Source of the DNA: Alphaproteobacteria bacterium
Lineage (GTDB): Bacteria; Pseudomonadota; Alphaproteobacteria; Bin95
DNA: 64,000 nucleotides
Assembly (NCBI GenBank): GCA_963665325.3
Contig: CAXXWS020000002.1
Span: 736,001-800,000, forward strand
Direction: 5' to 3'
Position numbers and translations under genes: made by a program. Positions 23,209-26,251 of this stretch are shown piece by piece; positions within the stretch are counted from its first letter, which is position 1; the number at the start of each line of letters is the position of its first letter. A model generated the notes under the pieces. It saw nothing but the letters and a program-made list of their open reading frames with translations, had not been told where the DNA came from and did no database searches.

Positions 23209-24450
23209 TCAAGCGAGGCTTTCCTCTATGCGGATGGCCTCGTTCCACTTCGCCATGCGCTCGGACCGGGCGAAGGAGCCGACCTTGAGGCCGGGCGCGC
23301 GCCAGCCGACCGCAAGATGCACAATGGTCACATCCTCGGTCTCGCCGGAGCGCGCCGAAACGATGCCGCCGAAGCCCGCCTGCCGCGCCGCGTCCCAGGC
23401 GGCCTTCGCCTCGGTGAGCGTGCCGCGCTGGTTGGGCTTGATGAGTAGCGTGTTTGCGGCGCCGCGCCGCGCCGCCTCTTCGACGCGCCGGGCGGAGGTC
23501 ACCAGCAGGTCGTCGCCGACCACCTGCACCCGGTCTCCGTGCTCCGCCGTGAACGCGGCGAAGCCTTCCCAGTCATCCTCGCCGAGCGGGTCCTCGACCG
23601 AGACGACGGGATAGCGCGCGAGCCACCCGCCGACCAGGCGGACCATGCCCTCGCTGTCCAGCTCCCGGTCCTCCAGTGCCAGCCGGTAGCGGCCGTTGCG
23701 CCCGAACTCGCTTGCCGCGACATCGAGCGCGATGGCGACCTGCTCGCCCGCGCGGAACCCGGCGCGCTCGATGGCACGGGCCAGCATGTCGAGGGCGGCC
23801 TCGTTGGTGTCGAAGTCGGGCCAGAAGCCGCCCTCGTCCGCCACGCCCCGCAGCCGCCCGGCCTCCGCCATCAGCAGGCCGGCGGTTCGATAGACCTCGG
23901 CGGTCCAGGCGCAGGCCTCTGCGAAACTCGCCGCGCCGGGCGCGGTCACCATGAAGTCCTGGATATCGACCCGCCGGCCCGCATGGGCGCCGCCGCCGAA
24001 AATCTGGATTTCCGGTGCGGGCAGCGAGACGGGCCCCTCGCCCGCAAGCCGGCGCCAGAGCGGCATGCCGGCCGCGTTTGCCGCCGCCCAGGCCGCCGCC
24101 ATCGACACCGCAACGCTGGCATTGGCGCCGAGCCGGGACTTGTCCTCCGTGCCGTCGAGCCCGATCAGCAGCGCGTCCAGCGCCTCCTGGTCCTCCACGC
24201 TCGCGCCCTGGAGCGCGGCGGCAATCTCGCCCTCGACGGCCGCCACGGCCTGCATGACGTCGAGCCCGCCGAAAGCCTGGCCGCCGTCGCGCCGGTCCAG
24301 CGCCTCGCCCGAGCCGGTCGAGGTCCCGGCGGGTGCAATCGCGCGGCCCGTCGCCCCGCCCGCCAGATGCACCTCGGCCTCCACCGTCGGCCGCCCGCGC
24401 GAGTCCCACACCCGGCGCCCGCGTACCCTCTCGATCTCGAACGCTCTCAC
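23209..24450 (-). CDS. eno: Enolase paralog with atypical active-site residues
   Basis: DSRGRPTVE, DEGGF, LDVAASE, VEDP, GDDL, LIKPNQ, RSERMAKWN; SARSGETED replaces SHRSGETED and IQDFM replaces IQEFM. Confidence 0.85.
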   Translation of the reverse strand: MRAFEIERVRGRRVWDSRGRPTVEAEVHLAGGATGRAIAPAGTSTGSGEALDRRDGGQAFGGLDVMQAVAAVEGEIAAALQGASVEDQEALDALLIGLDGTEDKSRLGANASVAVSMAAAWAAANAAGMPLWRRLAGEGPVSLPAPEIQIFGGGAHAGRRVDIQDFMVTAPGAASFAEACAWTAEVYRTAGLLMAEAGRLRGVADEGGFWPDFDTNEAALDMLARAIERAGFRAGEQVAIALDVAASEFGRNGRYRLALEDRELDSEGMVRLVGGWLARYPVVSVEDPLGEDDWEGFAAFTAEHGDRVQVVGDDLLVTSARRVEEAARRGAANTLLIKPNQRGTLTEAKAAWDAARQAGFGGIVSARSGETEDVTIVHLAVGWRAPGLKVGSFARSERMAKWNEAIRIEESLA

Positions 24451-24532
24451 TGTGCCGCTCCCTCTGCCGGGTCCGCATGAAAGACCGTCGTCTTCCTCGG
24501 GGAAAGGGTCGGGCGGCAGTACCCCTGCGATG

Positions 24533-24630
24533 TGTCATGAATTGTCATGTTTCGTTATGCGATGTCATGGGGCTGCCTGCGCAGGGCGCGTGTCCCGCGT
24601 CCGTTTTCGACATGCCATTCCTGCTCCTTC
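24533..24630 (-). repeat. Short copy of the CATGACA 10-bp-period element with RBS and 22-aa micro-ORF (24545..24613)
   Basis: Plus strand TGTCATG at 24533, 24543 and 24563, CGTTATG at 24553, TGCGCAGGG at 24578; minus-strand AAGGAG/AGGA then MSKTDAGHAPCAGSPMTSHNET*. Confidence 0.7.
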
Positions 24631-24644
24631 GCCTTCCGGAATCG

Positions 24645-24670
24645 AAAAGGCGGCCCCGAAGCCGCCTTTC
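24645..24670 (-). terminator. Rho-independent terminator downstream of the epimerase gene
   Basis: AAAGGCGGC-cccgaa-GCCGCCTTT inverted repeat; T-run on the minus strand. Confidence 0.7.
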
Positions 24671-24720
24671 CCCCGTTCCGGGCCTGACGCGCACCGGACG
24701 CCTTTTCGGGACCGCCGGTA

Positions 24721-25626
24721 TCAGCCCTCGGCCTGCACCGCCTCGATGATCTGGCGCACGCGGTCCCGGAAGGGTGCGTATTGGAGGCCGAACTCCTCTA
24801 CCAGCCTGCGGTTGTCGATCAGGAAATTACCGGAGCCGTCGCGGCCGCCGGTCTCGCTGTCGAACGAGATATCCGCGTCCGGCAGGAACTCGCGCACCAG
24901 CGCCGCGAGATTGCCCATCGAGATGGCGTGGCCGCCTGTGTTGTAGACCTGGTGGCGCGGCGCTTCGGCGAGCGTAACGCGCGCGAACGCCTCCGCCACG
25001 TCATCCACATGGATGGGCGCGCGCATCGCATCCGCATGGGGGAAGCTCACGGGCTCGCCGCGGGCCGGGAAGGTGACGCAGCGCACATGGTCGATGGAGC
25101 CGTAGATCTTGTCAGGTCCGGTCACGTTCGCCGGTCTGATCCCGGTGATCCTCATGCCGTACTTCCCGGTGTAGTCGCGCGCCTGCCACTCGTTGAAAAT
25201 CTTGTGCATGGCATACTGGTTGTCGCCGTAGCGATGGTCGTCCTCATCCGCCGCGCGCTCGCCGAAATGGCTCTGAAAGCCGCTGACGGCCAGAGAACTG
25301 GCATAGACAGTGTGCGCGACGCCGGCGAGCCGGGCGGCCTCGAAGCAGTTGCCCATGCCCAGAATGTCTAGCTTGAGCGCGATGCGCGGCGGCAGCTCGC
25401 CGATGAAATAGGCGAGGTTGACCAGCCGGTCGGGCTTCGTCTCCGCGACGAGCGCCATCACCTGGTCGAATTGGGTCACGTCCCCGCGCCGCGTCTCGGC
25501 CATATCGCCGAAGTCCGCCGCATCGGGGGCGATGTCCATCGCGATGACCTCCGCGCCCTGCGCCGCCAGCAGCGGCACCAGCCGGCGCCCGATAAAGCCG
25601 GTCCCCCCGACCACCAGAACCTTCAT
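24721..25626 (-). CDS. NAD-dependent epimerase/dehydratase (extended SDR)
   Basis: GGTGFIG, YASSLAV, YAMHK catalytic YxxxK. Confidence 0.88.
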   Translation of the reverse strand: MKVLVVGGTGFIGRRLVPLLAAQGAEVIAMDIAPDAADFGDMAETRRGDVTQFDQVMALVAETKPDRLVNLAYFIGELPPRIALKLDILGMGNCFEAARLAGVAHTVYASSLAVSGFQSHFGERAADEDDHRYGDNQYAMHKIFNEWQARDYTGKYGMRITGIRPANVTGPDKIYGSIDHVRCVTFPARGEPVSFPHADAMRAPIHVDDVAEAFARVTLAEAPRHQVYNTGGHAISMGNLAALVREFLPDADISFDSETGGRDGSGNFLIDNRRLVEEFGLQYAPFRDRVRQIIEAVQAEG

Positions 25627-25684
25627 GTCCTGTCCTCTCCCGTTCGAGCCGCCCCCTGAGCGGCAACCGTTTCGATAGAAGCAC

Positions 25685-25705
25685 ATTTCGATTCAGGCTC
25701 GAAAT
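25685..25705. promoter_or_regulatory. Palindromic operator candidate upstream of the epimerase
   Basis: ATTTCGA-N7-TCGAAAT perfect inverted repeat about 60 bp upstream of the ATG. Confidence 0.45.
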
Positions 25706-25753
25706 CCCCGCCCCGGCCCCGGCCTGCCGCCGAGCGGGGAAGCCCTCCGGATA

Positions 25754-26182
25754 TGTCATGGGATGTCATGTTTTGTCATGCGCAGGGTTCGTATGCTGCG
25801 GCCGGGCCGGGCCTGCAGCGGCCGTTTCGGTCCGGTGCTCCGGGTATTTGGTCCGGTTTTTCCGGCTTCCGGTTTCCGGCATCGGTCTCTCCTTTCGATC
25901 CGTCTTCGCTCCGTTTTCCCTGTGCCGGATGGGCCAGGCGGCGGGACCCTATTTTCGCGCGCAATCGCGCGCGGGCGGGCGGGTGCGTTGGCGCCGGCGC
26001 GGTTCGCGCGCCTGATTGCGCCTGTGTGCCCCCGCGCGCGAACCCGAGCGCAGGGCGCACCTTTCCTGTCCGCCCCCTCGGTGGTTTTTCGCGCCGGCGC
26101 CGGTGCGGGAGTGAGCGGCCTCCGGAAACCGCTCCCGGTCATTTGTTCTGGCTTTATTCTAACATACTTTGGCGAAACACAA
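25754..26182 (-). other. Long copy of the element: SOS-box promoter, structured leader, RBS, 38-aa micro-ORF (25766..25882), three CATGACA repeats
   Basis: TGTCATG at 25754, 25764 and 25774 with TGCGCAGGG at 25779; AAGGAG-N6-ATG at 25882; multiple inverted repeats in 25959-26134; TGT-TAGAAT extended -10. Confidence 0.6.
26145..26182 (-). promoter_or_regulatory. Extended -10 promoter overlapped by an alphaproteobacterial LexA-like box
   Basis: Plus strand GTTC-tggcttt-ATTC at 26145-26159 (consensus GTTC-N7-GTTC); minus strand TGn-TAGAAT at 26164-26156; weak -35 TTGTGT with a 15-bp spacer. Confidence 0.55.
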
Positions 26183-26251
26183 GTCCTTCGCCGGCATTTT
26201 TCAAGAATTTTGGGGCTTATATATCAGTTTACCCGGACCGCCTCTCCGCGA

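Follow-up and report, generated by a model that had tools for sequence, protein, structure and literature searches.

The 64,000-nucleotide stretch of DNA analysed here (the window; positions 736,001 to 800,000 of contig CAXXWS020000002.1, assembly GCA_963665325.3, Alphaproteobacteria bacterium) carries on its minus strand an epimerase gene and, downstream of it, an enolase-family gene, each preceded by a copy of an intergenic element that ends in an array of CATGACA heptamers with a period of 10 bp (Table 1). The long copy, upstream of the epimerase gene, comprises a promoter, a structured leader, a ribosome-binding site (RBS) and a micro-open reading frame (micro-ORF) that runs into the array; the short copy, which lies between the two genes, is leaderless. 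Both are members of a mosaic family of about 70 copies that is restricted to one genus and combines a promoter, a leader, an RBS with an ORF and a phased heptamer terminus. That these are mobile promoter/leader expression cassettes, of which the window holds one long and one short member, is the explanation that we favour, and we see roughly even grounds for and against it.

Table 1. The two element copies and the neighbouring genes (positions in the window; two dots, interval; descending pairs are read along the minus strand)
Feature	Position	Strand	Basis or content
Promoter, long copy	26156..26183	-	weak -35 CTTGTGT and extended -10 TGTTAGAAT; aligned to the family promoter columns
Extended -10 TGTTAGAAT, long copy	26164-26156	-	read from sequence
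LexA-type box variant GAATAAAGCCAGAAC, long copy	26160-26146	-	overlaps the -10 and the likely start site
GC-rich leader, long copy	25895..26149	-	homology to 65-68 genomic copies; 5' end inferred from the promoter
5' hairpin P1 (GAGCGG ... CCGCTC)	26113..26134	-	family-wide pairing counts
Near-invariant 31-nt block GCGCAATCAGGCGCGCGAACCGCGCCGGCGC	25991..26021	-	column entropy across the family
Second conserved block GCGAT(A/T)(C/G)GCGCGAAA-AGGGTCCCGCC	25940..25970	-	family alignment
AAGGAG RBS of the long copy	25894-25889	-	read from sequence
38-codon micro-ORF, ending HDKT* within the array	25882-25766	-	sequence and ORF list
CATGACA array, three units, 10-bp spacing	25780-25754	-	read from sequence and pattern search
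Array and 3' flank tatCCGGAGGG, 3' end of the long element	25743..25780	-	family consensus
NAD-dependent epimerase/dehydratase gene, between the two copies	24721..25626	-	Pfam PF01370, E = 2.7e-31
Terminator-like hairpin AAAGGCGGC-TTCG-GGGCCGCCTTTT, 3' of the epimerase gene	24644..24669	-	read from sequence; not reported by the pattern scan
Short leaderless form, whole	24520..24665	-	RBS, ORF, array and flank catCGCAGGGG
AAGGAG RBS, short copy	24629-24624	-	read from sequence
22-codon ORF, ending HNET*	24613-24545	-	read from sequence
Four-unit array, one unit CATAACG	24569-24533	-	read from sequence
Enolase-family gene downstream of the short form	23209..24450	-	Pfam PF00113 and PF03952

In both copies the segment CCCTGCGCA stands immediately 5' of the array, and all sequence features that an initial annotation, made from the letters of the window, had listed for the two copies were recovered on the minus strand, position for position. 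The leader of the long copy has a minimum free energy of -182.5 kcal/mol (z = -2.15). A generic promoter scan did not call the long-copy promoter because its -35 element is weak (TTGTGT), and the 38-codon micro-ORF had no match in Pfam. The epimerase gene, which is host cargo or a downstream gene, begins 127 nt past the array. As the segment from the array to the epimerase RBS (tttcgagcctgaatcgaaatgtgcttctatc, window 25743-25626) is kept at orthologous loci without the element (L011, L018), it is part of the upstream region of the host gene and not of the element. The array of the short copy ends 82 nt before the enolase-family gene. This short form has paralogues of its own in the genome of the window (G000), one at C1:2517057-2517198 (79.7% over 143 nt) and further ones at C3:66368, C1:1301693 and C1:661578, and it is kept in the orthologue L015.

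Within the window, CATGACA-N3-CATGACA with up to two mismatches was matched five times against 0.23 expected, and none of 100 shuffles reached five. Across the whole genome (5.58 Mb, five contigs, 67% G+C), CATGACA occurs 710 times and forms 119 same-strand pairs at exactly 10 bp and none at 11 bp; each of 40 permuted heptamers used as a control gave no pair at 10 bp. With one mismatch allowed per unit, we counted 99 arrays, with two (33 arrays), three (59) or four (7) units, at 78 loci; these are spread over four of the five contigs (all four large replicons), and 97 of the 99 arrays lie outside gene calls, which were crude. Leaders numbered 65 by blastn and 68 in an nhmmer profile search, with a median pairwise identity of 0.74. 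The two parts are linked: an array follows on the same strand for 65 of the 68 leaders, at a median distance of 172 nt, and a leader lies at most 3 kb upstream at 69 of the 78 array loci. Units measure 0.4 to 1.4 kb. What the initial annotation had taken for a two-copy element is a family of this size, and many copies were found in this genome and in related metagenome-assembled genomes (MAGs). No match to the element was found among the PLSDB plasmids by blastn at a distant setting, and the main texts of the literature yielded no account of a CATGACA-array family.

Tabulated on an alignment of 65 copies, homology from copy to copy starts about 45-50 nt upstream of the -35 element, at TTGTTC (exact in 31 of the 65), and continues into an AT-rich stretch resembling GAAATAATTCC (within two substitutions in 40), which in some copies is the palindrome GGAATTAATTCC. 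The -35 element reads TTGACC in 19 copies, TTGACT in 14 and TTGACA in 11 (44 of 65 in total), and the -10 element reads TAGAAT in 18 copies and agrees with TATAAT in at least four positions in 45; a TG stands ahead of it in 49 copies, and the spacer between the two elements is about 15-16 nt by reading of the alignment. After the promoter come a 5' hairpin, a variable hairpin region, an A-rich stretch, two conserved blocks, a further variable hairpin, a GGAG-type RBS with an ATG, the ORF and the array. The two blocks, which are carried by the GC-rich leader of about 190 nt, are near-invariant, with a column entropy near zero over 92 distinct copies, and show no three-base periodicity, which argues against coding. 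At two loci of G000 (C3:374100-374330, L093; C3:1199000-1199200, L096), two to three tandem units of about 55 nt (ggcggcgtcaacgccgccatctgcaatgttcgccgcgttcg) stand between leader and RBS; this unit is a further internal module of the mosaic.

The ORF between the element ATG and the array varies from copy to copy. Five copies (92-100% identity) encode an intact protein of 326 amino acids (aa) whose ORF always ends in the array; a multi-copy terminase-like gene is one cargo of the family. This protein matches Pfam Terminase_2 (PF03592) over residues 11-80 (E = 4.7e-12; 47.2 bits against a cut-off of 26.1) and small-terminase PHROG 51 (E = 8e-14), and consists of a small-terminase-type helix-turn-helix (HTH) domain, helical segments and a basic tail. 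In an AlphaFold2 model the HTH alone was confident (mean predicted local distance difference test score, pLDDT, 56.6), with predicted helices and disorder in the rest; for residues 85-326, the best score in the ESM Atlas was 0.88, to viral hypothetical proteins, which we treat as a lead only. NCBIfam and PADLOC yielded no family for the protein. At least 120 homologues with 64-100% identity occur in related MAGs, and 29 of 33 aligned homologues share the ending HDxx*, that is, they end inside an array. The five terminase-like (TerS) units begin and end sharply at the same points, TTGTTC and a position about 12 nt beyond the last array unit, and sit in unrelated neighbourhoods amid ordinary metabolic genes. 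Beside one of them, a 282-nt segment (G000 C3:84280-84561; L165:8280-8561) has at least ten copies of 90-91% identity in the congener G012; its reverse translation, judged by eye, may resemble the C-terminus of an IS3-type transposase. At least three other copies of the element encode an unrelated protein of 150-190 aa without a family match. The micro-ORFs that most copies carry encode hydrophilic, basic peptides (for example MPETGSRKNRTKYPEHRTE) of no fewer than five unrelated types, which end in HDKT*, HDIS* or GP* because they run into the array. A TEYPE motif stands in the same frame in four of five copies, too few to judge selection on the peptide.

The family is confined to the genus and varies in occupancy within it. 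Among 16 congeneric genomes, the leader is present in 13, and the same 13 carry perfect three-unit arrays, 7-129 per genome, with no match to a reversed control pattern in any genome. The 326-aa protein was found in 12 of the 16, with 6-17 matches and many open frames, and its gene occurs in 5-17 solo copies per genome. Three smaller congeners have neither leader, arrays nor protein; searches of 20 genomes from the two sister genera and 12 from other families yielded no arrays, and leader matches beyond the genus were single and marginal.

Comparison of orthologous loci shows turnover of sites. At the epimerase gene, which has orthologues in L011-L018, the window, L015 and L002 carry the element; L012, L016 and L017 lack it, the epimerase gene there having a methyltransferase gene as its immediate upstream neighbour. 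Between the same methyltransferase/epimerase pair in L014, promoter and leader enter the epimerase ATG via the element RBS, with no micro-ORF and no array, and L013 has a shorter version of this fusion to the epimerase start codon. For other copies in relatives, the counterpart of the downstream gene has an element in our genome in four cases and none in five. Elements also coincide with breakpoints: synteny between the window and L015 begins at the 5' end of the element, and one TerS unit sits at the junction of flanks that are single-copy in all 16 congeners and never adjacent there. The 5' boundaries of nine copies in relatives have no terminal motif in common except TTGTTC. Logan contigs from four runs were fragmentary, broken at the repeats and piled up on the core, and gave no usable empty-site joint.

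The arrays follow the family consensus CATGAC(a/g)-aAA-CATGACA-ttT-CATGACA-yyyC-ss-nGGgG, in which spacers and 3' flank are position-specific and not random. Counted on the array unit that the search did not select for, C1 (84 of 99) and C6 (90 of 99) are better conserved than T3, G4 and A5 of the ATGA (70-77 of 99). This pattern points to a motif that is recognized as a whole heptamer, and the best reading of the array is a putative phased protein-binding terminus, in which the three-frame stops look like a by-product. As the array, with one repeat per helical turn, lies where the gene for an HTH protein ends, and this HTH protein is from a family that forms oligomers acting on repeats near its own gene (PMC4737164), the 326-aa protein is the obvious candidate ligand and may bind the array. 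The literature on TGTCATG direct repeats as a binding site contained nothing relevant.

For 24 of the 99 arrays, the next called ORF has an array ATG as its earliest in-frame start (distances -16 or -6), and automatic annotation therefore likely over-extends the N-termini of genes downstream of arrays. CATGAC was considered as a 5' terminal repeat or target and rejected, being present at three of the five TerS copies here and at none of nine copies examined in relatives. A motif, GGAGTGGGCCC, has 29 copies in G000 (for example C1:1560828 and C4:114322; L178, L179), 13 of which directly follow CATGACA arrays; the remaining 16 run on as CTGGGTCGGACAG...TTTGAC, another short repeat. GGAGTGGGCCCC was considered as the end of an insertion sequence and likewise rejected: 13 of its 29 genomic copies follow arrays, 16 lead into a different short repeat, and no transposase was found at two loci checked. 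The GGAGTGGGCCCC motif is a separate repeat. A palindromic CCCCGGATCGGGGTCCGGGG-like repeat is present in 30 copies in G000 (for example C1:521191 and C1:2298119), and copies related to CCCCGGATCGGGGTCCGGGG adjoin several elements and also occur at L011, upstream of the epimerase gene.

In the model that we favour, a full unit is a self-contained cassette composed of an operator-like stretch (TTGTTC ... GAAATAATTCC), a sigma-70-type promoter with an extended -10 element, a hairpin, the leader, an RBS with ATG and a variable ORF. Its 3' terminus is the array, in which two to four CATGACA units recur exactly once per helical turn ahead of C-SS-NGGGG. The minority of units that encode the 326-aa protein would be master copies, and the remainder deletion or mosaic derivatives that have retained both ends. 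Such units would spread by duplication or transposition through some enzyme, and the array would act in cis at the 3' end, where the element's HTH protein would bind as an oligomer along one DNA face. The promoter would drive the ORF of the element and, by read-through, the next gene, and insertions would in this way rewire host expression; in some species the RBS-ATG of the element has become fused to a host gene. The TGA and ATG of the heptamer, which close all frames entering the terminus, would probably be a side effect or at most useful insulation, and a subfamily that includes the window copy may additionally have been brought under LexA-type control. We infer that the family spreads as a unit and that its promoter drives downstream genes; it looks like an undescribed spreading element that places promoters ahead of ordinary genes. 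Of the three options offered in the initial annotation, a non-autonomous mobile element with helically phased binding repeats fits best, given a dispersed family whose occupancy varies by species and an array that behaves like a motif recognized as a whole heptamer.

A number of observations weigh against this model. Neither terminal inverted repeats nor target-site duplications were found at the five TerS copies, and no pair of filled and empty sites with identical flanks and a clean junction was found; of the two marks of mobility named in the initial annotation, empty orthologous sites were seen and target-site duplications were not. No catalytic, transposase or recombinase domain is recognizable in the 326-aa protein, and no recombinase is common to the neighbourhoods of the five TerS units. 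The congener G009 has leaders and seven arrays and no match to the protein. According to PMC4737164, the DNA-binding domain of the SF6 small terminase shows little preference for pac repeats in vitro, and binding of the array by the HTH therefore cannot be assumed. Most leaders are old, with a median pairwise identity of 0.74, the extreme conservation of the leader blocks goes beyond a simple mobile-DNA model, and 46 of 65 downstream genes are co-oriented with the array (the other 19 being convergent), which is also expected of a regulon.

Such a lineage-specific regulon is the foremost alternative, although we regard it as unlikely. Here some 70 operons would be under the common control of a cis-regulatory module made up of promoter, operator and leader, for example an attenuator, a riboswitch-like RNA or the target of a small RNA or protein, and the array would be an operator or roadblock for a regulator. 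Besides the invariance of the blocks and the co-orientation of downstream genes, four sites are kept between species, and in L014 and L013 the leader serves as the epimerase gene's 5' untranslated region (5' UTR). Substitutions in the leader, moreover, fit a helix in sense-strand RNA. The P1 hairpin is canonical in 88% of alignment cells, against 35-65% when the partner is slid, and includes a covarying pair (AU 44, GC 17, GU 11). An upstream GUGCGCC pairs with the GGCGCGC of the 31-nt invariant block in 97.8% of cells, its one-sided changes comprise 41 G.U and 4 A.C, and CGCGCC is an alternative partner for the same GGCGCGC; four G-to-A changes yield U-A in the first helix yet disrupt the alternative hairpin. 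The bias of G.U over A.C is consistent with sense-strand RNA with competing helices, short of proof. Conversely, none of the 12 pairs predicted by RNAalifold was compensatory, with shuffled controls as good as the observed alignment. Mutual information over 92 leaders was rejected as evidence of base pairs, the top pairs being subfamily signal. Rfam 15 gave no match at the gathering score in the whole window and only noise between 24400 and 26400 at E up to 10, and so provided no family for an element that the initial annotation had been unable to name. Units in the family also oppose the next gene in 19 of 65 cases, and the downstream genes are diverse: judged from sequence, with Pfam assignments for the epimerase and the enolase only, they include epimerase, transporter-binding protein, CoA ligase/transferase types and tRNA synthetase. 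A regulon would further have to accommodate units with ORFs of their own, including a multi-copy protein gene, the absence of the family from three congeners and the position of units at synteny breakpoints.

We hold it doubtful that the family is a new class of mobile element altogether, one whose sole protein is a small-terminase-family HTH, whose 3' end is a phased heptamer array and whose leader RNA takes part in mobility or targeting as guide, scaffold or template; a role of the leader RNA in mobility is proposed here because no protein catalyst is encoded. A genome from another alphaproteobacterial family (G027) has nine matches to a protein of about 290 aa that is 32-34% identical at its N-terminus to the terminase-like protein. 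At the loci L170-L176, seven copies share a block of about 900 nt from the promoter aCTTGTATTCCTAGGACTATAAG to the stop codon, with no CATGACA arrays. These are a second, independent multi-copy solo terminase-like unit, which hints that such units are a wider phenomenon.

It is improbable that the arrays are instead packaging signals, that is, pac-like sites at which the small-terminase-like protein would recruit the large terminase of a phage or satellite, so that chromosomal DNA would be packaged and transduced. In P22 and Sf6, pac sites reportedly lie in or beside terS. The small-terminase HTH is the sole recognizable domain of the protein, arrays occur on all four large replicons, and the gene overlaps the putative site much as pac of SPP1 lies near terS (PMC4737164). 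However, only one large terminase was found in the genome, in a Mu-like prophage that has no relation to the TerS units, and no phage structural genes stand beside any of the five units (49 neighbouring proteins). Similarity to annotated small terminases of phage genomes is limited to residues ~7-122, and in no case among the 41 matching phage records does coverage of the protein reach 80%. Packaging also leaves the promoter, the leader and the many units without the protein unexplained. The Mu-like prophage (G000 C1:472001-490000, L177) has genes for portal_Mu, Mu F, gpT, GemA and the large terminase; its Mu F-like protein has a match to an ADP-ribosyltransferase domain at the C-terminus.

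Very improbable, in our judgement, is the reading that the initial annotation had placed beside the mobile element: a damage-inducible small-ORF unit in which ATGA stops and restarts translation in three frames and couples or uncouples the downstream gene, or a system resembling type I toxins. A precedent is given by mycobacterial interspersed repetitive units (MIRUs), the small ORFs of which overlap adjacent genes (PMC3184786). The arithmetic behind the claim is correct, as a TGA falls in each frame once three units follow one another at 10-bp spacing, and 60 of the 78 array loci do close all three; the other 18 leave at least one frame open, so that stops are retained widely and not throughout. 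However, C1 and C6 are better conserved than the ATGA letters, the median distance from the array to the start of a co-oriented downstream gene, which has an RBS of its own, is 55 nt, and 19 of 65 arrays face a convergent gene, all of which disfavours a stop/restart module. The analogy with tisB and dinQ fails on the character of the peptides, which are hydrophilic, basic, of several unrelated types and unconserved. Control by LexA would hold for part of the family. The consensus of the alphaproteobacterial LexA box is GAAC-N7-GAAC; lexA of this organism is preceded by GAACTAATGTAGAAC, which has this form, and recA by GAAT-N7-GAAC, the same one-mismatch variant as in the window copy. With differing N7, this variant overlies the -10 element in the window copy, its paralogues C4_243246 and C5_45967 and the orthologue L015. 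Perfect boxes occur elsewhere in the promoter in three copies, and ATTC-N7-GTTC in two; relative to the promoter, the box takes three different positions by subfamily. Boxes are 8.4-fold enriched in element promoters (0.65 per kb, against 0.077 per kb in other intergenic DNA). Nevertheless, a box with at most one mismatch is present in 8 of 65 copies and missing from the other 57; the LexA-type box is not a family trait, and the SOS control proposed for the element would hold only for the window copy and its subfamily.

Sites of a host response regulator can hardly be entertained: although the other strand reads TGTCATG-N3, resembling the CTGTCAT direct repeats of the Pho box, with A/T-rich spacers and positions shortly upstream of many genes, the Pho box has an 11-bp period against 10 bp in 119 pairs and never 11 here, the arrays are tightly linked to an upstream leader and end its ORF, and their absence from three congeners and the sister genera would be odd for a core regulon.

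If the favoured reading, mobile expression cassettes, is true, one uncultured alphaproteobacterial genus carries tens to more than 100 ready-made cassettes per genome, which arrive before metabolic genes, sometimes fuse to start codons and mark the reshuffling of gene order. This would be a natural and analysable case of promoter and 5'-UTR propagation at scale, and raises the question of how an element spreads with a terminase-like DNA-binding protein as its sole gene product. In practical terms, contigs break at the family and stack up about 70-fold on its core, which fragments assemblies. Small ORFs and start codons are also called spuriously, since the next gene often has an array ATG as its earliest in-frame start; recognizing the family improves the annotation of these MAGs.

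Among known systems, insertion sequences with their miniature inverted-repeat transposable elements (MITEs) form families of a few coding copies and many shorter copies that keep both ends. The CATGACA family is similarly multi-copy on all large replicons, with an occupancy that varies by species and copies at rearrangement breakpoints. In contrast, its units lack inverted repeats and target duplications, the encoded protein has neither a transposase nor a recombinase fold, and the two ends are asymmetric, one being a promoter and the other a direct-repeat array. Correia elements have terminal inverted repeats, which the CATGACA units lack. Putative mobile promoters are near-identical promoter-bearing intergenic sequences before unrelated genes of one genome, which may carry RNA motifs and whose mode of movement is unestablished (PMC3575422, Nijveen, Matus-Garcia and van Passel 2012). 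Their definition, homologous promoter-bearing sequence before non-homologous genes in one genome, describes our family as well. Compared with both Correia elements and putative mobile promoters, however, the CATGACA unit is much larger, has a conserved leader of about 190 nt, an RBS and ORF of its own and a phased heptamer terminus, and in some copies encodes a protein.

In SPP1, direct repeats of the pac region span promoters and the start of the small-terminase gene, as set out in PMC4737164. The 326-aa protein resembles the SPP1/SF6 small terminases described there in an N-terminal Terminase_2-type HTH followed by helices and in having direct repeats at its gene, and phasing on one face would suit a ring or oligomer of HTH motifs. 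It differs from them in its solo copies, in the lack of an adjacent large terminase or virion genes and in repeats that stand at the 3' end of the gene. MIRUs, according to PMC3184786, number 40-50 copies of 40-100-bp units with small ORFs that overlap flanking genes, are transcribed in operons and have filled and empty sites; as described there they have no promoter or leader of their own, whereas the CATGACA unit has both. Overlap of the repeat ORF with a downstream start, as in MIRUs, was not found, as the upstream ORF ends in the array and the next gene usually starts tens of nucleotides later. With the alphaproteobacterial LexA regulon, the window copy and seven others have in common a box, perfect or with one mismatch, at the promoter or close to it, unlike the large majority of copies, and, unlike type I toxin-antitoxin systems of the tisB/dinQ kind, the family has no conserved small hydrophobic peptide. 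Mobile promoters, the insertion sequence/MITE model, MIRUs and small terminases with pac thus all fail to fit on defining features. Overall, there is a modest chance that a new mobility mechanism lies behind this family, whose place is with promoter-bearing interspersed repeats.

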